A DNA stretch of 7,651 nt from a virus. The notes below the pieces were generated by a model. It was given only the letters and a program-made list of their open reading frames with translations. It ran no database searches and had not been told where the DNA came from. Position numbers and translations under genes: made by a program. This document shows positions 1 to 7,199 of this stretch, in pieces; position 1 is the stretch's first letter, and every line of letters begins with the position of its first letter. The stretch lies in the UHGV virus genome UHGV-0363594; one strand, written 5' to 3'.

Positions 1-90
1 TTTTCACTATTTATGAAAATTTTCCGGGATCCATGTCCGGTTTCTCTGCAAGTTAACCATATGAAAAATATAAAAACATGCTTTCTATGA

Positions 91-167
91 ACCGGACATG
101 CGCAAAAAACAGACACTAAAACCGGACATCGTACCCGTTAACCGGAAGTGTGCAAAAATCACACGCA
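91..167. repeat. Imperfect direct repeats of a ~27-bp unit (AACCGGACATGCGCAAAAAACAGACAC at 91-117; AACCGGAAGTGTGCAAAAATCACACGC at 141-167), a partial third copy AACCGGACATC at 121-131, and an inverted core CATGTCCGG at 32-40
   Basis: Direct inspection: the two long copies match at about 21 of 27 positions; the core CCGGA(C/A)(A/G)T recurs four times within 140 bp in a non-coding stretch. Confidence 0.6.
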
Positions 168-550
168 TTGCTGCGCGTGATTAACAATTTATCGGCTTTA
201 CTGTTCTGTATAGGCTGGGTGGCGTCATGCCGTAGCCGTTCTCCGTGCCAGCATGGAATAATCCGTAGTTACAGAGCGGTAAAGTTAAAAATCACTTTCT
301 GTTACGCCATCAAATACGCGATACAACAACCATGTGTTTTTACAAAACCATTTGATATCATTGAATTTTTTCACATTAATGACATCAAAATACATCGTAA
401 GGTTGTTGTATTTATTTTATTTTTACCTTACTTATCAATTAGATATACCAAACAATTAAACAACAACCACCCCCTCAAAAAATCTCATAAATAGCGAAAA
501 ACCGCGAGGTCGCCGCCCCGTAACGGGTCCATATGCCGGAAAGGACCCGT

Positions 551-574
551 AAAAAAAAGCCGGATTTCTCCGGC
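551..574 (-). terminator. Rho-independent terminator of the capsid operon (minus strand)
   Basis: GC-rich hairpin GCCGGA-gaaa-TCCGGC (plus 559-574) followed on the minus strand by a run of 8 T (plus A-run 551-558), 7 bp after the stop of the 581..994 ORF. Confidence 0.75.
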
Positions 575-580
575 CTTGTC

Positions 581-994
581 TCAGATGGTTTTCAGTATGC
601 GATCGATGTCGCCGTCATCGCCCTGGTTTCTGCCATCGTATGCCATGCCAGCTGATACGGCTTGCGGGCTGTGCATGTCCATAAAGTTTTCAAAGGCTGC
701 GGTAAGCTCTGGTGCAACCTTTGGGCGCTCCTGCTCTATGGTCATGTTCAGGATTTCACGAGCATTATCGACGCTAATACATGGCACGTTTGCCATTGCA
801 CGTAACAGCGGCTGATAGTCTTTATGCTCATGAAGCGCCATAATCGCATCAGCGCGCGGCTTGTCCTGTTCTTCCAGTTTGTTGAGTTGATATACGGCCT
901 CGTAGGTTGATAAACCTCTGTCAGCCATTGCCCGCGCTTCTGCTTTAAATTTACTCGCCAGCGGTAGCGCCATGATGCTTTCATTCGTTGCCAT
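581..994 (-). CDS. Hypothetical protein (137 aa), last gene of the capsid operon; acidic C-terminus
   Basis: ORF with a G-rich Shine-Dalgarno (AGGGGAA, 5-nt spacer) immediately after the stop of the decoration-protein gene; followed by an intrinsic terminator. No family recognised by eye. Confidence 0.6.
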   Translation of the reverse strand: MATNESIMALPLASKFKAEARAMADRGLSTYEAVYQLNKLEEQDKPRADAIMALHEHKDYQPLLRAMANVPCISVDNAREILNMTIEQERPKVAPELTAAFENFMDMHSPQAVSAGMAYDGRNQGDDGDIDRILKTI

Positions 995-1006
995 CGTTTC
1001 CCCTGC

Positions 1007-1342
1007 TTATCGCGCCAGCGGCTGAACGGATACGCCAGAACCCGCAAAGGCGGCGCATTTTTTCGCGTCAGTGTCGGCGCTCTCAGGCCAGTTAACGGCG
1101 GCAATATTGAATATCCCCGTCTTGTAACACTGTGCTGATTTCTGCTTTGACGTGTCCACAGGATACGAAGTCAGATAAACAGCCTTGCCAGATTCCTGAC
1201 CATCCCACGGCTTAAACTCGCCATTGTCCGCCAGCATCAGCGGGGTAAATTCCTGAATAACGCCAGCATCAGCGGCAAAATGTACCAGCGTCGTGGCGAC
1301 CTGCTGACTGCCTGCAAATAACTCAATGTATGGAGTGTCCAT
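1007..1342 (-). CDS. Head decoration protein, phage lambda gpD-like (111 aa)
   Basis: Length and sequence resemble lambda gpD as I recall it: TPLMLADNGEFKPWDG vs TPLMLDTSSRKLVAWDG, and a C-terminal block CYKTGIF..VNWPE..D.D.KK.AAFAGSGVSV vs FYKSGTF..VLWPE..D..KKRTAFAGTAISIV. SD GGGGGA 5 nt before the ATG. Confidence 0.85.
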   Translation of the reverse strand: MDTPYIELFAGSQQVATTLVHFAADAGVIQEFTPLMLADNGEFKPWDGQESGKAVYLTSYPVDTSKQKSAQCYKTGIFNIAAVNWPESADTDAKKCAAFAGSGVSVQPLAR

Positions 1343-1353
1343 AGAATCCCCCG

Positions 1354-2409
1354 TTAAGCAATTTTGACAGTAACAAATTTGCGAATATCTGCCGGAACCG
1401 GCTGCGGTGCGCTGTGCGTCTGCACGTACTCAATCGCCGGATCTCCGTCCTCAATCCAGTTTTTCGGGTAGTACATGTTTTGCGTTGCCCCCGTTCTTAC
1501 TGCGTCCTGATCCATAATCGCACCATAGGCCACCAGCCCTTTATTGTTGGTGTTGCCCAGGACAAGCAAATCAGGCTCAAGGAAATATTTTTCTGTGCCG
1601 TCGCTGTCAGTGTATTTGCCGGAATAGACGATAAGGGCCAGATCACCAAGATAGCCTTTAAAGCTCACCACTTCGCCCAGGTTTTTACATGCCAGCTCTG
1701 CGGCGGATTCTGAACCACGGGAGAGATCGTACAGTTCACGGAATTTTTTAAAGCTGCGTAACATGCGCCATACATCAACGCCCATAATCATGACGTTTGC
1801 GGGGCAACCTGTCTGATCTGCGTATAGCTCGATGTCATAGATTGGATCGTGTGTTTCCTTATCTGCCTCTGACCACTTTTTGCCATGTCCCTGTCTGGCG
1901 ATATTTTTACTTGGGATCTTCCAGTCGATTTCATAGCGTTCTATGCCTTCGCCCTCAATGATGTTTTTTCCGGTCGTTATCGCATTCACCGCCAGCCATT
2001 CCACGCGCGCTTTAATGGCGTTTATCTGGCGGCGCATGTTGCCAGTAATCAGGCGCATACGGCGGTAGGTAGGGTCGTTAAGCTGTGCCGGATCTTCTCC
2101 AGCCATGCGCATTATTGTTTTTAATGGATCGATTTCGTGTTTTGGCTTCATGTAGCCAGGGCGAATAATGCTTGTTTCGTACCCTTTATCGCGCTGAACC
2201 TGGCTACCAACCATAGGCGAACAAAACGCCGACATAGTGACTTCTTCAATATCCAGGTTATCTAACATGATGTCCTGTGTGTTGAATGTCGCCACGTTCG
2301 GGAAAAACAGCGCGGTAAACAGCGGACTGAATTTAAATTCCGCAATATCCTCGCGATTCAGGTACGCAAAAAGCTGGTTAGTGTTAAGTGCTATTGCTTT
2401 TACTGTCAT
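1354..2409 (-). CDS. Major capsid protein, phage lambda gpE family (351 aa)
   Basis: Strong similarity along the whole length to lambda gpE as recalled (e.g. KFSPLFTALFF vs KFDPLFLRLFF; PGYMKPKHE vs PGYVKPKHE; EDPAQLNDPTYRRMR vs EDPQNLADPAYRRRR; YPKNWIEDGDPA vs YPKNWVTTGDPA). SD GGGGGTG upstream; the start overlaps the stop of the upstream small ORF. Confidence 0.9.
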   Translation of the reverse strand: MTVKAIALNTNQLFAYLNREDIAEFKFSPLFTALFFPNVATFNTQDIMLDNLDIEEVTMSAFCSPMVGSQVQRDKGYETSIIRPGYMKPKHEIDPLKTIMRMAGEDPAQLNDPTYRRMRLITGNMRRQINAIKARVEWLAVNAITTGKNIIEGEGIERYEIDWKIPSKNIARQGHGKKWSEADKETHDPIYDIELYADQTGCPANVMIMGVDVWRMLRSFKKFRELYDLSRGSESAAELACKNLGEVVSFKGYLGDLALIVYSGKYTDSDGTEKYFLEPDLLVLGNTNNKGLVAYGAIMDQDAVRTGATQNMYYPKNWIEDGDPAIEYVQTHSAPQPVPADIRKFVTVKIA

Positions 2410-2615
2410 TATTCACCCCCGTGAACCTGATTCATACCCAGCGCCGCGCGTAAATAGGCGCGTACCTGCCAGCCTGTTGACGGCTCAACCATCGCCAGCG
2501 GATCAAGTCCTGCCGCAATGCCTGCTTTTACGTTCTGCTGGTGGCGTTCCTTGAGCGCCTTCACGATGTCGGGGCTTATGTACACCGAAACACCGCCTTT
2601 TTTCTCTTCAGCCAT
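2409..2615 (-). CDS. Hypothetical small protein (68 aa), first gene of the capsid operon
   Basis: ORF begins 30-60 bp downstream of the promoter/palindrome; SD AAGAGGAA upstream; its stop overlaps the capsid gene start, suggesting translational coupling. Function unknown. Confidence 0.55.
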   Translation of the reverse strand: MAEEKKGGVSVYISPDIVKALKERHQQNVKAGIAAGLDPLAMVEPSTGWQVRAYLRAALGMNQVHGGE

Positions 2616-2642
2616 AGTAAGAAATTCCTCTTTGACTTAAAA

Positions 2643-2699
2643 AATCATAACTGGATGTTCATCCAGTTATGATTATAATCATGATTGCATTTTGTGCAA
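2643..2699 (-). promoter_or_regulatory. Candidate sigma70 promoter of the capsid operon with an overlapping 32-bp palindromic operator
   Basis: On the minus strand: -35 TTGCAC (plus 2694-2699), 16-nt spacer, -10 TATAAT (plus 2672-2677). The palindrome AATCATAACTGGAT-GTTC-ATCCAGTTATGATT (2643-2674, 14-bp perfect arms) spans the -10 and the predicted transcription start. A second small inverted repeat TTGCA-TTTTG-TGCAA (2686-2700) overlaps the -35. Confidence 0.5.
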
Positions 2700-2780
2700 T
2701 GATATTGAGTTGCGTTGCAAATTATGAAATGATTATCCCGATCATGTGTGTCAGTGCACCAAAAAAAACCTCATATGCAA

Positions 2781-2819
2781 AAGCCCGATAAGCCCCCTCT
2801 GACCTTATCGGGCTTTTTT
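2781..2819 (+). terminator. Intrinsic terminator-like hairpin with T-run, strongest on the plus strand (possibly bidirectional)
   Basis: Stem GCCCGATAAG (2783-2792) / CTTATCGGGC (2804-2813), 11-nt loop, followed by TTTTTT (2814-2819). Four A precede the stem, so a weak minus-strand terminator is also possible. No protein-coding gene on the plus strand ends upstream of it. Confidence 0.5.
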
Positions 2820-2994
2820 ATCTGCCTGCAAAGATGTCGAACAAAAATTAACCACAATCATCATCTTTTTTGCATCAAAATAATTAAAAACAATCACTTA
2901 CGCACATGATGATGATGACGATAAAATCAAAAAAATGCGCTTCTTTCCGCGCCTCCCGCCCCGTGTTCAGGCCCACCCCGCCAGGAGGACCCGT

Positions 2995-3016
2995 AAAAAA
3001 GCCGGATTGCTCCGGC
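2995..3016 (-). terminator. Rho-independent terminator after ssb (minus strand)
   Basis: Hairpin GCCGGA-gcaa-TCCGGC (plus 3001-3016) followed on the minus strand by 6 T (plus A-run 2995-3000), 17 bp downstream of the ssb stop. Nearly identical to the terminator at 551-574. Confidence 0.75.
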
Positions 3017-3032
3017 TTCTGTCACTCGTTGC

Positions 3033-3455
3033 TTAAAACGGTATGTTATCCCCGTACGGATCATCGTTACCCGCCTGTTGTTTTGCCCTGTTCAGTGCGT
3101 CAGTAGCCTGGCCCTGCTGGCCTTTTTTACCACCTGGTCGCGCCGTTCTGGCACTGATTACGCTGTCAGCGATAACCTGCCACCCCTGCCGCGTTTCTCC
3201 GTTCTGCCCAGTCCACTGGCTGATCTGCATGTTACCCGCCACGCTCAGGAGTTCACCCTTGCGGTGCCTTTCCAGTGCTTCGGCCTGTCTGCCAAATGCG
3301 ATGACCGATAGCCATAACGTCGCCTGCCCATCCTGCGCCTGACTACATGGCAACGATACCGCCATACGTGCCAGCGTCATTGGTGTGCCCTTGCTGGTCT
3401 GTTTTACCTGCGGGTCGTCCACCAGCCGCCCGTAAGCTGCTATCTGTGCTGTCAT
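3033..3455 (-). CDS. ssb: Single-stranded DNA-binding protein (SSB), 140 aa
   Basis: The N-terminal two-thirds has an OB-fold SSB pattern (GRLVDDPQV...; W..VIAFGRQAE.....KG). A Gly/Gln-rich linker is followed by an acidic tail ending DDPYGDNIPF, matching the canonical SSB C-terminus (...DDDIPF). Strong SD GGAGAGGTGG. Confidence 0.9.
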   Translation of the reverse strand: MTAQIAAYGRLVDDPQVKQTSKGTPMTLARMAVSLPCSQAQDGQATLWLSVIAFGRQAEALERHRKGELLSVAGNMQISQWTGQNGETRQGWQVIADSVISARTARPGGKKGQQGQATDALNRAKQQAGNDDPYGDNIPF

Positions 3456-4016: not shown

Positions 4017-5771
4017 TTATAAAAACGCGTCACAATCATCAGTTGTAATTGCGTTGGTCTGCGTTACTCCCTTAACTCTCCGCGTAATATATTCATGTCC
4101 GTAAACTTTTGCCGCTGGCTTCATGGCCTTGCTGAACTCAGCCACGTTTAGCGGTTTGCTCCTGCCTGCGTATGCCATAAACGCCAGATAGACGCGGTAA
4201 AGGCTGTTTCTGGTCGTGTACTTCACTGAATCGCCACCGCCGCCCATCATCAGGCCGCGTGCTTCCTCCAGAAAATTCAGGAACTGGCAAAACTCAATAA
4301 CCGGATCCGTCTGTTGCTTTATTGCCAGAGCTTCATCACCGTCGCGCTGTTCCAGTAATAAAGCCCGTGCCTTTTCAGGGTCGGCAAAATTAGCCAGCAA
4401 GCGACGGATAATTACGGGGATTTCAGCCGCGACCTTCTCCGGCAAATCCTTGTCTTTTTCGTCCTCCCTTACAATGTTGTCGAACCGGAAAATCACCCGA
4501 CGGCGTGACACACCTCCGGCCCGCTCGGTGAATATCATCGGGTTATTGTTGGTAGCCAGCACCACCGCCCTGATTACCGCCGTAAAACGCTTCTCATATT
4601 TCGGGTTTATTTCCACGGGGTCGCCGCCCGTGATTTTCTTGATGCCCGTTCCTTCGCCTGTATATTTCGGCTGGTCAGCCAGGACGATAAGACGACTCCC
4701 GACAACCTGCGCACGTCCACCAGCATCATCAAGTGAGGTCATTTCAGCGCTTACCGTGTTCTGTTTCCCTGCCAGAAGGCTGGCTATGTGCGTGAATGTA
4801 CTTTTACCGCTACCGCCCTCTCCGGTGGCCTCAATAAACATCTGCCAGTCGTACCGGTTCGCCATAATCATGTACAGCGCGGCACATATACGCATCATCT
4901 TGCGCGGGTCTTTTCCGGCTGCGTGCTCAAGCCATTTATGAAAGTTTGGCGCGTTGTCGCAGATATTCTCCCCTGGTGCTGGTGGCGTGTACTCAATGCC
5001 GTTGTGCGTGGTGATCCAGTTCTCCGGCGTGTGCGGGGAAAATTCCCCCGTTTTCAGGTCAAGCGCACCATTGGCGAACGGCAACAAATCGCCGGACGGC
5101 TCGCCCATTGGTTCGGCAATAACTTTTAACGCTTCCACGGCGTTATTGATTACGCGCTTGCTGAAAGTGGCCCTGTGCTCTGAATAGATCGCCACCATTT
5201 CGCGGCTAAGTTCCATTGTGCTGACCGGACACCATACCCCGCCGCGCCATACGTGAACGATTTCACTTTCAGGATGTACGCAAACGCCATCAAAGCGATC
5301 GGCAAGCAGCTGCGCGCGCTCACTGTCCGCCATCTGCGAAAGTTGCGCCTTTTGCTTTACCGGAAGCTCAATGACCAGACCATCAGAAAGATTCTGGCGC
5401 TCACGGGCCAGATATTCGCGCCAGTTCTGCACCTCCTGGCCGTGCATACCATCAGGATAAAAATTTGCATCCTGTACGCCTGCCGCCGCCAGCTTCTGAC
5501 CAATCGCCTTTATCATTACAGGCGCAAGATATCCGGCCCTGTATATGCGTGCTGATTTTCGGCCTTCCGGCACAATTTGCAGATTATCCAGTTCGGATAG
5601 CTGCTGCTCCCCAAGCCACACAGGAGGCTCATTATCTCCGGCCATACGCGCATCATGTTCCTGCCATTGTTTCGCGTGTGCCCAGGCATCACTACCCGCA
5701 AAAATAATGACTTCTGTTCCTTTGTGTTTTATGCCGCGTGACTGCTGTTTTACGTTCGGTGCCAGTTTCAT
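4017..5771 (-). CDS. DNA primase/helicase (584 aa), phage/plasmid P4-alpha / D5-like type with SF3 helicase domain
   Basis: Walker-A P-loop GEGGSGKST in the C-terminal half, with downstream hydrophobic strand and acidic motif (LIVLADQP) typical of D5/P4-type primase-helicases. The N-terminal segment TEVIIFAGSD may be TOPRIM-like (tentative). Start overlaps the stop of the upstream ORF (ATGA). Confidence 0.85.
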   Translation of the reverse strand: MKLAPNVKQQSRGIKHKGTEVIIFAGSDAWAHAKQWQEHDARMAGDNEPPVWLGEQQLSELDNLQIVPEGRKSARIYRAGYLAPVMIKAIGQKLAAAGVQDANFYPDGMHGQEVQNWREYLARERQNLSDGLVIELPVKQKAQLSQMADSERAQLLADRFDGVCVHPESEIVHVWRGGVWCPVSTMELSREMVAIYSEHRATFSKRVINNAVEALKVIAEPMGEPSGDLLPFANGALDLKTGEFSPHTPENWITTHNGIEYTPPAPGENICDNAPNFHKWLEHAAGKDPRKMMRICAALYMIMANRYDWQMFIEATGEGGSGKSTFTHIASLLAGKQNTVSAEMTSLDDAGGRAQVVGSRLIVLADQPKYTGEGTGIKKITGGDPVEINPKYEKRFTAVIRAVVLATNNNPMIFTERAGGVSRRRVIFRFDNIVREDEKDKDLPEKVAAEIPVIIRRLLANFADPEKARALLLEQRDGDEALAIKQQTDPVIEFCQFLNFLEEARGLMMGGGGDSVKYTTRNSLYRVYLAFMAYAGRSKPLNVAEFSKAMKPAAKVYGHEYITRRVKGVTQTNAITTDDCDAFL

Positions 5772-6067
5772 TTTTTACCCCTGAATGCGTTAATCATGTT
5801 TTTCATTTTCTGAATATTTGCCCGTGCCTTTGCGTTGCTGGTGGGCACGTTATGCGGCGCGGTCTGTACCAGAGAAAAATCACGCCGGAACTGATAAACA
5901 GGCATCACGCAATCATATTCGTAACCTTCACGGCGGTAGGTTACGCGCCGTTCTTCCACGCCCTTAATCATTACCGTGCCGCCGTACTGGTCGCGGTAAA
6001 TATCACCGCGCGTAAATTTAGGGTGAGTGTTGCCACTGGCAGTTAAGCCAGAATATTTAAGTTTCAT
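5768..6067 (-). CDS. Hypothetical protein (99 aa), translationally coupled to the primase/helicase
   Basis: ORF directly upstream of the primase with ATGA stop/start overlap; basic, Tyr/Arg-rich. No family recognised. Confidence 0.5.
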   Translation of the reverse strand: MKLKYSGLTASGNTHPKFTRGDIYRDQYGGTVMIKGVEERRVTYRREGYEYDCVMPVYQFRRDFSLVQTAPHNVPTSNAKARANIQKMKNMINAFRGKK

Positions 6068-6072
6068 TATTT

Positions 6073-6306
6073 TTATTCTCCGGTGTGCTGTTCGTTATAT
6101 CTGTCGTGCAATGTCTCTATTTCCTGCAACTCATTTATTACAGGCTCAAGAAGCGTTATTAATGCCGTGGCAATTCTTGATTTTTGTTTGTCGCGTTCAT
6201 TGTCGCCAAGTGTTTCAAGCCATATGCGCAATATTTCCAGCATGTTTTCACTGTGAGAAAGTGCAAGAGATGCGTGGCCTATTGTTTCAAGGTAAATATC
6301 ACGCAT
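6073..6306 (-). CDS. Hypothetical protein (77 aa)
   Basis: ORF whose ATG lies 1 nt after the stop of the upstream ORF (TAA-T-ATG); acidic, predicted helical composition. No family recognised. Confidence 0.5.
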   Translation of the reverse strand: MRDIYLETIGHASLALSHSENMLEILRIWLETLGDNERDKQKSRIATALITLLEPVINELQEIETLHDRYNEQHTGE

Positions 6307-6307
6307 A

Positions 6308-6529
6308 TTAATCCCCGTCCGTCGTTTTTCTTAAAACAACTTCTGTCACGAAATCAGCATAGTTAGCGGCAATATCAAGAATATTTAGCCCTGTATCCCT
6401 GTGCTCATCAGTGCAAAGAAAGAAAAAAGCCACCCGCATAATTTCAGATATTGACGAAAGCGCATCAGCCGCATCATCAGGAAAGCCGGAAAATTCCTGT
6501 TTCAGGGAATTAAAACGATCATCACGCAT
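6308..6529 (-). CDS. Hypothetical protein (73 aa with the start chosen here; the ORF extends to 6577)
   Basis: I prefer the internal start at 6529 (MRDDRF...): it is preceded by a G7 Shine-Dalgarno-like run and overlaps the upstream stop by only 8 bp. The 6577 start lacks an SD and would overlap the upstream gene by 56 bp. Confidence 0.45.
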   Translation of the reverse strand: MRDDRFNSLKQEFSGFPDDAADALSSISEIMRVAFFFLCTDEHRDTGLNILDIAANYADFVTEVVLRKTTDGD

Positions 6530-6743
6530 AACCCCCCCCATTTTCACAATCAGCAATAAGAATATTTTTAGCGTCATTCAGCGACCGCGTGGCGGTGTAT
6601 CTGATACATTCCAGGGCGAACTGTGTCCGGTCTTTCTGTTCTTCTCCCTGCGCAAGCTCTGCCGTGCATTCAATATCAATAAGCGCGTGCATCAGCGTAG
6701 TGAGTGCGGCGGCGGCTGCGTCCGGTGTGGTTTTATTGCACAT
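6522..6743 (-). CDS. Hypothetical protein (73 aa with the start chosen here; the ORF extends to 6773)
   Basis: The start at 6743 (MCNKTTPD...) is preceded by a strong SD AGGAGGT with a 5-nt spacer and overlaps the end of Icd-like gene A by 11 bp. Ala-rich N-terminus, several Cys. Confidence 0.5.
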   Translation of the reverse strand: MCNKTTPDAAAAALTTLMHALIDIECTAELAQGEEQKDRTQFALECIRYTATRSLNDAKNILIADCENGGGYA

Positions 6744-6906
6744 GGCACACCTCCTGACGAATACGGGCGACAAAAATCAGATGTGCGTGCGGCAGCTGGG
6801 CGCGGGCTTCGCGCTCAGTGGCAGCGGTAACGGTGTAAATATCAATGCTGCTGTGGTGGCACTGCATAAAGCGCCAGACAAAGTAAGGGCGTGCGGATAC
6901 AGCCAT
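6733..6906 (-). CDS. Small Icd-like protein, paralog A (57 aa from the internal start; the ORF extends to 7041)
   Basis: Shares FVWRF, TEREAR and F(V/A)ARIRQ motifs with the 7192..7389 ORF. The start at 6906 is preceded by GGGAGCC, similar to the RBS of paralog B. The motif pattern resembles host cell division inhibitor Icd-like proteins as I recall them (memory-based, unverified). Confidence 0.55.
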   Translation of the reverse strand: MAVSARPYFVWRFMQCHHSSIDIYTVTAATEREARAQLPHAHLIFVARIRQEVCHVQ

Positions 6907-6992
6907 GTGAAAGGCTCCCAGATGAATTTTAAGGAGTCTCGCTACTACGCTGTCAAACATGGTGGCGAGACGTAACAGGGTTGACAGACTGG

Positions 6993-7199
6993 TCATCTGG
7001 AAACCAGCGAGCACAAAGGCTCCCCCGTTACGCCCCGCCATAATGCGGGTATGGGTAGGTTTACGGACACAAAAAACCGCTTATCGGATGTGGGCGGCTG
7101 TCCGCCAGATGTATTCAGGCTGTCAAACCCGGTCGCCATGTGGGCGACGGGGGAAGCATACAGCCCCGTGATAATTTTTTGCAAGCGGTTTTTACGCAT
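6993..7199 (-). CDS. Hypothetical protein (68 aa with the start chosen here; the ORF extends to 7241)
   Basis: The start at 7199 (MRKNRLQ...) has an AGGGG SD-like element and overlaps Icd-like B by 8 bp. It occupies the same relative position as 6522..6743 in the duplicated unit but shows no obvious protein similarity to it. Confidence 0.4.
   Translation of the reverse strand: MRKNRLQKIITGLYASPVAHMATGFDSLNTSGGQPPTSDKRFFVSVNLPIPALWRGVTGEPLCSLVSR

Follow-up and report, generated by a model that had tools for sequence, protein, structure and literature searches.

An operon of capsid, decoration and scaffold-type genes in the virus genome UHGV-0363594 corresponds to the capsid module of EcCICFT073-family phage-inducible chromosomal islands

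Results

Organization of the operon

The stretch of DNA analysed here (7,651 nucleotides of the virus genome UHGV-0363594, hereafter the window) contains on its minus strand four tightly packed open reading frames (ORFs) at 581–2615, which a first-pass annotation, made from the letters alone, had grouped into one operon with its own terminator and with matched G-rich Shine-Dalgarno sequences. This description holds (Table 1). The first gene (orf68) and the capsid gene overlap by 1 nt, the remaining intergenic gaps are 11–12 nt long, and G-rich Shine-Dalgarno-like motifs precede all four starts (AAGAGGA, GGGGGTGA, GGGGGA and AGGGGAA). The hairpin of the predicted terminator has a folding energy of -15.5 kcal/mol (z -5.6). 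Transcription proceeds from the capsid gene to the decoration gene and then to a scaffold-like gene; as had been noticed, this is opposite to phage lambda, in whose record D lies at 5747–6079 and E at 6135–7160. To the right of the operon, the expected replication genes are present, namely a single-stranded DNA-binding protein (SSB, 3033–3455), a small ORF and a D5_N/DUF5906 primase (4017–5771), followed by a DUF4222 protein (Pfam).

Table 1. Features of the operon and of its surroundings in the window.
Feature	Position	Strand	Basis or description
Orf68 (68 aa; c1498 homologue)	2409..2615	-	ORF list and comparison with EcCICFT073
Major capsid protein, lambda gpE family (351 aa; c1499 homologue)	1354..2409	-	Pfam and PDB 3BQW orthologue
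Head decoration protein, gpD/SHP family (111 aa; c1500 homologue)	1007..1342	-	Pfam
Predicted scaffold-derived protein (137 aa; c1501 homologue)	581..994	-	Profile and BLASTP homology
Predicted intrinsic terminator of the operon	556..577	-	9-bp stem, 5 GC pairs, then T8
cos1	470..550	-	cosQ-like flank, exact lambda cosN 507-518, lambda-like to ...CGCTATTTATGA, then divergent DNA
Inter-cos slot without rppA	141..469		~290 bp AT-rich DNA and short rppA 3'-end remnant
cosB-type region of second, inverted cos	1..140	+	Three ATGTCCGGTT-type repeats: ~25-43, 91-104, 119-137
Conserved putative regulatory region ahead of orf68	2616..2830	-	Sequence reading, four-island comparison and hairpin energies
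SSB terminator and degenerate cos-like sequence	2940..3019	-	Repeat families D1, D6; alignment with cos1 and prophage cos

Identity of the element

Gene content and sequence place the operon in the EcCICFT073 family of classical Gram-negative phage-inducible chromosomal islands (PICIs), whose late, or 'capsid', module it constitutes; its four genes are the counterparts of c1498–c1501. When the window was compared with Escherichia coli chromosomes, the best match (97.1% identity over 97% of the window) was found in strain KY203 (NZ_AP045179.1). The island present there comprises, in this order, tRNA-Pro, an integrase, an AlpA-like helix-turn-helix (HTH) regulator, Icd-like ORFs, the DUF4222 protein, the primase, the SSB and the operon; in this 97%-identical island, the integrase and the AlpA-like protein sit just past the position of the right end of the window. 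Beyond the operon there is non-coding DNA with a second cos and a single 94-aa gene, and the chromosomal gene yejO follows about 1 kb on, so that the island has chromosomal genes on both sides. A search for exact 14-mers found no att repeats, while a repeat tool detected imperfect 42-nt direct repeats (79% identical) lying 11,323 bp apart beside tRNA-Pro (locus L001), giving an island of about 11.3 kb. The islands of CFT073, SCU-106 and an O157 strain have the same layout.

No portal, protease or large terminase is encoded by the ORFs of the window (Pfam scan), and neither these nor tail or lysis genes were found in the annotation of four whole islands, where the only structural genes are those for the capsid, decoration and scaffold-derived proteins. 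Particle formation must therefore rely on a lambdoid helper. The proposal in the first-pass annotation that the element is a satellite is thus confirmed by the integrase, AlpA-like HTH protein, primase, SSB and cos located beside tRNA-Pro, and inspection of the left flank revealed no contiguous head module. Of the announced absence of portal, protease, scaffold and terminase, the part concerning portal, protease and large terminase stands for both the window and the best-match island, but a scaffold-derived gene is present (see below). The features of a PICI are found in the island: integrase, AlpA-type regulator and pri-rep genes in a unidirectional layout, small size with att repeats, and a helper-type packaging site with an exact lambda cosN and a second, inverted cos. 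The one element lacking in this variant is rppA, a trait that varies in the family.

EcCICFT073 is the prototype of Gram-negative PICIs; its genes were described in 2018 (PMC6092414) and further in 2019 (PMC6739421), and it is for EcCICFT073 only that helper-dependent induction, packaging and high-frequency transfer have been demonstrated experimentally (PMC6092414). In CFT073, where the island is located at L004 36931–47655, the SSB gene is followed by genes of 207, 1056, 336 and 414 bp in the same order. Identity of the window proteins to c1498, c1499, c1500 and c1501 is 99%, 93%, 98% and 93%, respectively, and the 2018 supplement lists c1498 with 68 aa and c1501 with 137 aa (PMC6092414). 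Because of this 93–99% identity to the products of a published island, the operon must be regarded as already known, and the novelty attributed to it earlier is lost. The two elements further agree in the neighbouring genes (DUF4222 protein, 584-aa primase, small ORF and SSB) and in the position of cos, directly after the 137-aa gene and accompanied by a second, inverted cos. They differ in three respects. The window variant has about 290 bp of AT-rich DNA in place of rppA and its cognate cosB; it has no perC upstream, but a degenerate cos-like repeat; and its closest relative is inserted beside tRNA-Pro (yejM/yejO), as against a position between roxA and phoQ in CFT073. As helper-type comparators we used two 49-kb stretches of CFT073 in which only lambdoid prophages were present.

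The capsid and decoration proteins and orf68

The assignment of the two shell proteins to the gpE and gpD families was borne out by profile searches. The 351-aa protein, a capsid protein of HK97 fold, matched Pfam PF03864 (Phage_cap_E) with E=6e-49 and the PHROGs major head protein with 1.5e-105. c1499 itself is the protein of the crystal entry PDB 3BQW ('putative capsid protein of prophage'; 100% identity), which the window protein matched with E=1.5e-225. Identity to lambda gpE is 43%, and that to a capsid protein of a CFT073 prophage is 45%; among 50,697 phage records, no phage capsid protein was more than 46% identical to that of the window, and a search of a species-representative genome collection with the capsid protein, alone and as an alignment, gave no match. 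In contrast, a helper-embedded island of Salmonella, inserted in a terminase gene, carries a copy of the capsid gene whose product is 67% identical, preceded by orf68 and followed by a decoration gene. Because the E. coli and Salmonella copies share 67% identity as against at most 46% to phages, the capsid gene is, judged from these comparisons, a satellite-specific lineage of long standing rather than a recent acquisition.

The 111-aa protein matched Pfam PF02924 (HDPD) with E=2.6e-17 and PHROGs head decoration with 7e-27, and is 36–37% identical to prophage proteins and lambda gpD. Its best relatives of solved structure are the 'head decoration protein' entries 1TD0/1TD3 (E~6e-13), which we take to be the SHP of phage 21, followed by lambda gpD. 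When compared with a lambda head module as a whole, the operon has the gpE and gpD families (43% and 37% identity), but lacks the W-B-C/Nu3-D-E-FI-FII gene order, the portal and the S49 protease.

Orf68 matches phrog_3255, a family to which no role has been assigned. Neither orf68 nor the 137-aa protein has a Pfam match even at E<=10, and NCBIfam gave no usable match to any protein of the operon. Orf68 was modelled by AF2 as a beta-hairpin plus two helices (pLDDT 76), and no PDB fold matched this model at E<=0.001. Homologues 60–68% identical, located by exact-sequence look-ups, occur in Salmonella and Pluralibacter islands, again ahead of the capsid gene. That orf68 might be a ribbon-helix-helix regulator is a weak guess. 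We also considered orf68 as a gpW-like protein and the 137-aa protein as a gpFI-like protein; Pfam and PHROGs gave no support to either assignment.

The cluster of orf68, capsid and decoration genes was also seen within prophages. In E. coli it occupies a helper-embedded island (L006, NZ_CM143727.1) between lambda-type head genes and contractile-tail genes, and in the Salmonella contigs L015 and L016 it is found in helper-embedded islands, one of them inside the gene of the terminase large subunit.

The 137-aa protein is scaffold-derived

The first-pass annotation had recorded no scaffold gene. On homology, however, the 137-aa protein is derived from the C-terminal region of a lambdoid scaffold of the gpC/Nu3 type. 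It matched phrog_53 ('head maturation protease') at profile positions 494–567 of 583 with E=1.2e-10, and in BLASTP searches its residues 49–131 aligned with residues 416–493 of 501-aa S49 peptidases from two CFT073 prophages (37–39% identity, E~3e-11), one of which sits at icd (L002). A later paper placed the helper of EcCICFT073 at icd (PMC10111431). In the lambda annotation, the C-terminal region of gpC is the scaffold part common to gpC and the nested Nu3. Alignment with hhalign covered residues 47–118 (probability 96.9%, E=1.3e-10) and included the last IMALxE...PGMT...A repeat and an FxxFMxxHSPxAV motif. A phmmer search of 1.84 billion representatives yielded few relatives, among them two Nu3-like proteins (E~3e-5); these matched 'head scaffolding' and 'capsid assembly' families and also phrog_1999, the family of the 137-aa protein itself, at 1e-41 to 1e-46.

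The homology is partial and extends neither to the first 45 residues nor to the final tail. The C-terminal RILKTI (residues 132–137) is invariant in all variants, while the tail of the helper protein is KMLMAMP. A direct comparison with lambda's own Nu3 revealed no similarity, and the ancestry should therefore be sought in the lambdoid lineage having gpC of the 501-aa type. The tblastn search of all phage records returned a single match for the 137-aa protein. Since a word-indexed homologue search gave close relatives only (at least 83% identity, full length), the multiple sequence alignment is shallow. The low-confidence, all-helical AF2 chain fits a flexible scaffold but is no proof of one. 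No paper linking PICIs with Nu3 was found in the literature collection searched.

Natural variants of 93 aa (P0027, P0029 and P0031; alignment A1) lack residues 21–64. Their deletion fuses two AEARAMA-type repeats, and the 137-aa protein therefore appears to be made of recombining repeat units, which resemble repeats in the scaffold region of the helper.

Distribution and selection

Of 5,426 complete E. coli genomes, 598 (about 11%) carry the operon at 90–98% identity, and 594 of these contain at least 80% of it. In E. coli, the capsid, decoration and scaffold-derived genes always co-occur. All four ORFs were intact in each of nine islands compared, one of which was prophage-embedded. The mean Nei-Gojobori dN/dS over the nine islands was 0.13 for the capsid gene, 0.09 for the decoration gene, 0.27 for the 137-aa gene and 0.29 for the 68-aa gene; by this measure all four genes are under purifying selection, the decoration gene being the most constrained. 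In a published survey, the capsid gene was present in 21 of 29 reference Gram-negative PICIs and was 'not required' for transfer (PMC10111431).

The cos sites

The left end of the window had been described as about 580 bp of non-coding DNA. It proved to contain an exact lambda cosN, the cosB belonging to another cos in inverted orientation, and what remains of rppA. The cosN 12-mer GGGCGGCGACCT at 507–518 lies 63 bp past the stop codon of the 137-aa gene, in the position that cos has in EcCICFT073. Its flanks (ACGGGTCCTTTCCGG...GTTACG/GGGCGGCGACCTCGCGG..TTTTCGCTATTTATGA) can be aligned with cos of a lambdoid prophage of CFT073 up to a point beyond which the sequences diverge. The second, inverted cosN is located, in the 97%-identical island, at L001 14983–14994, which equals window positions -17 to -6, six bases past the left end of the window. 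Window 1–23 is an inverted repeat of 478–500. The cosB-type region in window 1–140 matches, in repeats and spacing, the cosB of a CFT073 lambdoid prophage (L004 7534–7700).

Both cos sites of EcCICFT073 are functional, and a phage cosB could not be identified in that island (PMC6092414). In CFT073 the two inverted cos sites flank rppA, whose product binds the helper small terminase and retargets it to cos1 of the island (PMC6739421). Alignment with CFT073, 042 and VTB96933v showed that rppA and its cognate cosB are replaced in the window by the AT-rich DNA, in which no credible ORF was found (141–469). Because its cosB closely matches a prophage cosB, the sequence suggests that the rppA-less variant could be recognized directly by the small terminase of the helper. 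The slot between the inverted cos sites is, from these alignments, a variable cassette: CFT073, 042 and VTB96933v have an rpp-type gene of 144–146 aa there, and in SCU-106, O157 and O26 the place is taken by a full small terminase of 180 aa. The AT-rich, rppA-less version is present with at least 80% query coverage in 46 complete E. coli genomes, in which it is unannotated.

KY203 (NZ_AP045179.1) contains the AT-rich inter-cos segment a further time, with 100% identity, at another locus (~3,215,753–3,216,033). Because of this second segment and of seven matching places in the record, KY203 probably holds more than one related island. Within the primase gene there is a 12-mer, GGGCGGCGACCC, that resembles cosN except for one mismatch (4618–4629, minus strand); it is conserved in the same place in CFT073 and KY203.

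The upstream region

About 210 bp ahead of orf68 are near-invariant in four islands that differ further upstream by the presence or absence of perC, and this region is more strongly conserved than the coding sequence. It had been predicted to contain a promoter with a palindromic operator. There is indeed a perfect 14-bp palindrome at 2643–2674 (-17.7 kcal/mol as RNA, z about -6), which overlaps the candidate -10 element and the expected start point, and AATCAT half-sites are repeated in the region. The candidate promoter itself (TTGCAC at 2699–2694, a 16-nt spacer and TATAAT at 2677–2672) was read by eye. A consensus scan did not report this site at 2699–2672, because its -35 element fits just three of six consensus positions; in the same scan, promoter-like sites in the window were no more frequent than in shuffled sequences. 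A palindrome-overlapped promoter of the operon is therefore plausible, although no scan matches it.

The operon is an insulated transcription unit, because terminators flank it on both sides: the SSB terminator at 2995–3019 (hairpin of -15.4 kcal/mol) and a terminator hairpin at 2775–2818 (-25.1 kcal/mol, z about -6) upstream, and that at 556–577 downstream. A degenerate cos-like sequence, which reads TTTTTTACGGGTCCT...ACGGGGCGGGAGGCGCGG, follows the SSB terminator and takes the place that perC has in CFT073. The whole segment 2940–3019 is a direct repeat of the terminator and cos after the 137-aa gene, 2,442 bp apart, so that in this variant the capsid operon is bracketed by terminator-plus-cos repeats. 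In EcCICFT073, the island genes are switched on by AlpA, which is induced by helpers (PMC6092414). The conserved region was also considered as a copy of a helper late promoter/qut, an idea that is unsupported because no DNA similar to it was found in phage records.

Discussion

A possible role of the operon in supplying shell proteins

Considered as a whole, the reading of the operon as a PICI capsid module whose structural proteins may contribute to the shell is, in our opinion, highly probable. Because the fourth gene is a truncated scaffold homologue, the operon represents a coherent capsid, decoration and scaffold kit rather than a lone captured capsid gene. A capsid protein, a decoration protein of the outer lattice and a scaffold-type protein of the inner face would form a shell set, the missing parts being portal and protease. 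We know of no role of a decoration protein off an assembled lattice. As for the scaffold-derived protein, its invariant tail differs from that of the helper and points to a cognate partner, namely the satellite's own capsid protein.

We tentatively propose, as a possibility that falls short of being probable, that the three structural proteins are a cognate shell kit operating on the helper portal and redundant in the laboratory with helper E, D and Nu3. The mini-scaffold would chaperone the satellite's own capsid protein, which might polymerize on the portal of the helper either by itself or together with helper gpE, and the satellite decoration protein could then stabilize the filled head. 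This supply of shell proteins would matter when helper capsid proteins are limiting, interrupted or incompatible. The EcCICFT073 family could then be seen as a partial step towards capsid-forming PICIs. In favour of the proposal are the purifying selection on the operon, the joint occurrence of the three structural genes in E. coli and two precedents: the capsid-forming PICIs, which make capsids of their own, and SaPI1 CpmB, which has its C-terminal capsid-binding motif in common with the scaffold of the helper (PMC5644958).

Several observations weigh against this proposal. Deletion of c1499 or c1500 left transfer by the resident CFT073 prophages unchanged and did not relieve interference with lambda, and c1499::cat islands were transferred by lambda and phi80 (PMC6092414). 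EcCICFT073 is packaged via cos by the helper terminase, the packaged DNA being phage-sized with no band of a PICI monomer (PMC6092414), and an island tetramer (~11.3 kb x 4 = ~45 kb) suits full-size helper heads, with no need of a satellite shell. In a further study, transduced cells were still obtained after cas9 had been put in place of c1498–c1501, termed there an 'adaptable module' (PMC10530653). On the side of the sequences, the capsid gene of Pluralibacter looks frameshifted, the fourth gene is not recognizably conserved in Salmonella and Pluralibacter, where unrelated small proteins take its place, and the AF2 model of the 137-aa protein has a pLDDT of 49, too poor for a fold search. 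Finally, expression of the operon proteins and their incorporation into particles are predictions. Neither the shell-supply nor the interference function first suggested for the operon is supported: the cas9 replacement was still transduced, and interference with lambda maps to RppA (PMC6739421).

The size-neutral c1499::cat island was transferred better than the enlarged tetA island, which according to the authors supports the cos mechanism (PMC6092414); we read this result as fitting multimers in full-size heads. The authors report no phenotype for c1499 (PMC6092414), and a review states that EcCICFT073 appears to be packaged in capsids of normal size. It should be noted, though, that all the transfer tests listed in Table 1 of the 2018 paper were performed on c1501::tetA or c1499::cat islands, the c1499 and c1500 deletions being in the c1501::tetA background (PMC6092414). 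Since c1501 is the scaffold-derived gene and the marker lies inside it, all the tests listed in 2018 were made on an operon that was not intact. The lack of a monomer band, the better transfer of the c1499::cat island and the fit of four island copies to a head of lambda size nevertheless speak against making too much of this reservation. In the laboratory, as assessed on marked islands, EcCICFT073 needs the operon neither for transfer nor for interference with lambda. In the later literature, nothing was found that settles the function of the operon.

The marker positions leave room for a stronger version of the proposal, which we consider unlikely: c1498–c1501 may be an active capsid-assembly module with a CpmB-like mini-scaffold, whose activity was missed because the marked derivatives used for transfer (c1501::tetA, c1499::cat and c1498–c1501::cas9) all had a lesion inside the operon. 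With an intact operon and a natural helper of the 21 type, satellite-encoded or mixed shells would be built on the helper portal, and such shells could be altered in size or could exclude the helper protease. If this were true, the module would be a 'shell-only' intermediate between classical and capsid-forming PICIs.

Alternative roles

An interfering function appears to be an unlikely alternative as well. The mini-scaffold, the satellite capsid protein or both would act as competitors or poison subunits of helper assembly, blocking the scaffold-binding site of gpE or co-polymerizing with gpE so as to exclude the gpC protease or Nu3 from procapsids; the outcome would be a lower helper yield, or a block of lambdoid phages other than the helper. 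The 137-aa protein does have the last repeat and the FxxFMxxHSPxAV motif in common with the C-terminus of helper gpC/Nu3, SaPI1 CpmB competes with the helper scaffold through a common C-terminal motif (PMC5644958), SaPIbov5 Ccm, itself a capsid-protein homologue, blocks its helper, and the published interference assays were all carried out on the c1501::tetA island. On the other hand, the spot assays set the tetA-marked island against a version of it that lacks c1503 (rppA), lambda and phi80 are blocked by RppA when it is cloned on its own (PMC6739421), and neither the c1499 nor the c1500 deletion relieved lambda interference. Furthermore, the extreme C-terminal tail, unlike that of the helper, argues for another binding partner, and the similarity of the 137-aa protein does not extend to lambda's own Nu3.

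It is even less likely that the capsid protein and the short scaffold redirect capsid size, building smaller shells for one or two island copies, with this activity hidden by the marker insertions. A capsid homologue together with a shortened scaffold is the type of toolkit known to alter shell size (P4 Sid, SaPI1 CpmAB, SaPIbov5 Ccm), and PmCI172, a Gram-negative PICI with a capsid homologue, makes small capsids; the marked islands of Table 1, all c1501::tetA or c1499::cat, would not have revealed it. Nevertheless, induced CFT073 strains gave no PICI-monomer band and phage-sized packaged DNA, the c1499::cat island, devoid of the capsid gene, outdid the enlarged tetA island in transfer, and four copies of the island suit a head of lambda size. 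The first-pass annotation had put forward both flanking small proteins as size-determination or redirection factors; for the 137-aa protein, candidacy as an assembly factor is a good guess, because it is scaffold-derived.

We regard as very improbable that the operon is an evolutionary leftover, i.e. captured helper late genes that are being lost and have no present function. The deletions without phenotype would agree with this, the study of helper-embedded satellites proposes cycles of late-gene capture and loss (PMC10111431), and the capsid gene appears frameshifted in strain A33 as well as in Pluralibacter. It is opposed by the purifying selection on all four genes and their integrity in all nine islands, by the extent of the operon in nearly all the genomes that carry it (594 of 598 with at least 80%), by the near-invariant upstream region and by the deep satellite-specific capsid clade, with its 67% identity across genera. 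Hardly any credence can be given to an ordinary prophage head region of odd gene order whose remaining head genes lie just outside the window, even though lambda E and D belong to the same Pfam families. The 97%-identical island has on its left only the second cos and the 94-aa gene before yejO and runs on its right from primase to integrase to tRNA-Pro, a layout common to CFT073, SCU-106 and the O157 strain. Moreover, CFT073 has its real lambdoid head modules at separate loci, with only 36–45% identity, and the island context was found in all the relatives examined.

Comparison with other systems

The preferred reading, a PICI capsid module that may supply shell proteins, can be compared with several known systems. 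The capsid-forming PICIs such as EcCIEDL933 (bioRxiv 10.1101/2022.09.08.507074) have the same int/alpA/rep backbone and their own capsid protein, and assemble their own capsids. The element in the window differs from them in holding capsid, decoration and scaffold-derived proteins only; a large terminase, portal, prohead protease and head-tail connectors of its own are absent from the window and from the related islands.

The helper-embedded PICIs such as 11capE (PMC10111431) carry the same orf68-capsid-decoration cluster in islands among prophage late genes, while the closest island of the window is chromosomal and located beside tRNA-Pro. With respect to lambda, the E and D families are shared and the scaffold-derived gene is related to the C-terminus of gpC of the 501-aa type found in the CFT073 prophages. 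However, the operon has the order E, D, scaffold-like as against Nu3, D, E in lambda, identities are 36–46% only, a protease domain, portal, W, FI and FII are missing, and there is no likeness to the Nu3 of lambda itself.

Among other satellites, SaPIbov5 is a cos-packaged satellite whose Ccm is, as here, a diverged homologue of the helper major capsid protein. Small isometric capsids, though, are not formed without Ccm, which also blocks the helper strongly, while no phenotype of size or interference was found for c1499; in addition, Ccm is 23% identical to the protein of its helper, compared with 43–46% in the present case, and is not accompanied by a decoration gene. The 137-aa protein recalls SaPI1 CpmB (PMC5644958), a small helical satellite protein whose C-terminal region is common with the helper scaffold, the helical structure of the 137-aa protein being a prediction. 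In CpmB, the common motif is the capsid-binding hook and acts on the helper capsid protein, while the window protein has an extreme tail different from that of the helper, in a satellite that brings its own capsid protein. P4-like satellites are likewise small, integrative and helper-dependent, with a large primase and with a capsid-related operon and cos far from the integrase. They differ in having P2 instead of a lambdoid phage as helper, and in that the capsid-related genes of the present element encode shell proteins and not external scaffolds; no homologues of Sid, Psu or Delta turned up in the Pfam or PHROG scans.

The capsid and decoration genes have been on record since 2018, and the 3BQW structure was present in the PDB without functional context. 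They pose the question why about one in nine complete E. coli genomes keeps the operon intact under purifying selection when transfer in the laboratory does not require it. This question is sharpened by two points, in which the remaining interest lies: the scaffold homology of c1501 and the position of the markers, which together make the role of PICI capsid genes more directly testable. Were the kit active, it would illustrate how satellites that steal whole capsids could turn step by step into satellites that build their own, and would also be relevant to PICI-based delivery vectors, from which these genes are now dropped.

A regulatory RNA module in the window

An Rfam scan detected a C4 antisense RNA (RF01695, 72.6 bits) at window 6958–7045 and an a1/b1 target (RF03163, 46.8 bits, barely over the gathering score) at 7112–7161, both on the minus strand. 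They adjoin ORFs annotated as Icd-like in related islands, and the regulatory region of the satellite therefore appears to include a c4-icd module, which presumably resembles the immI region of phage P1.

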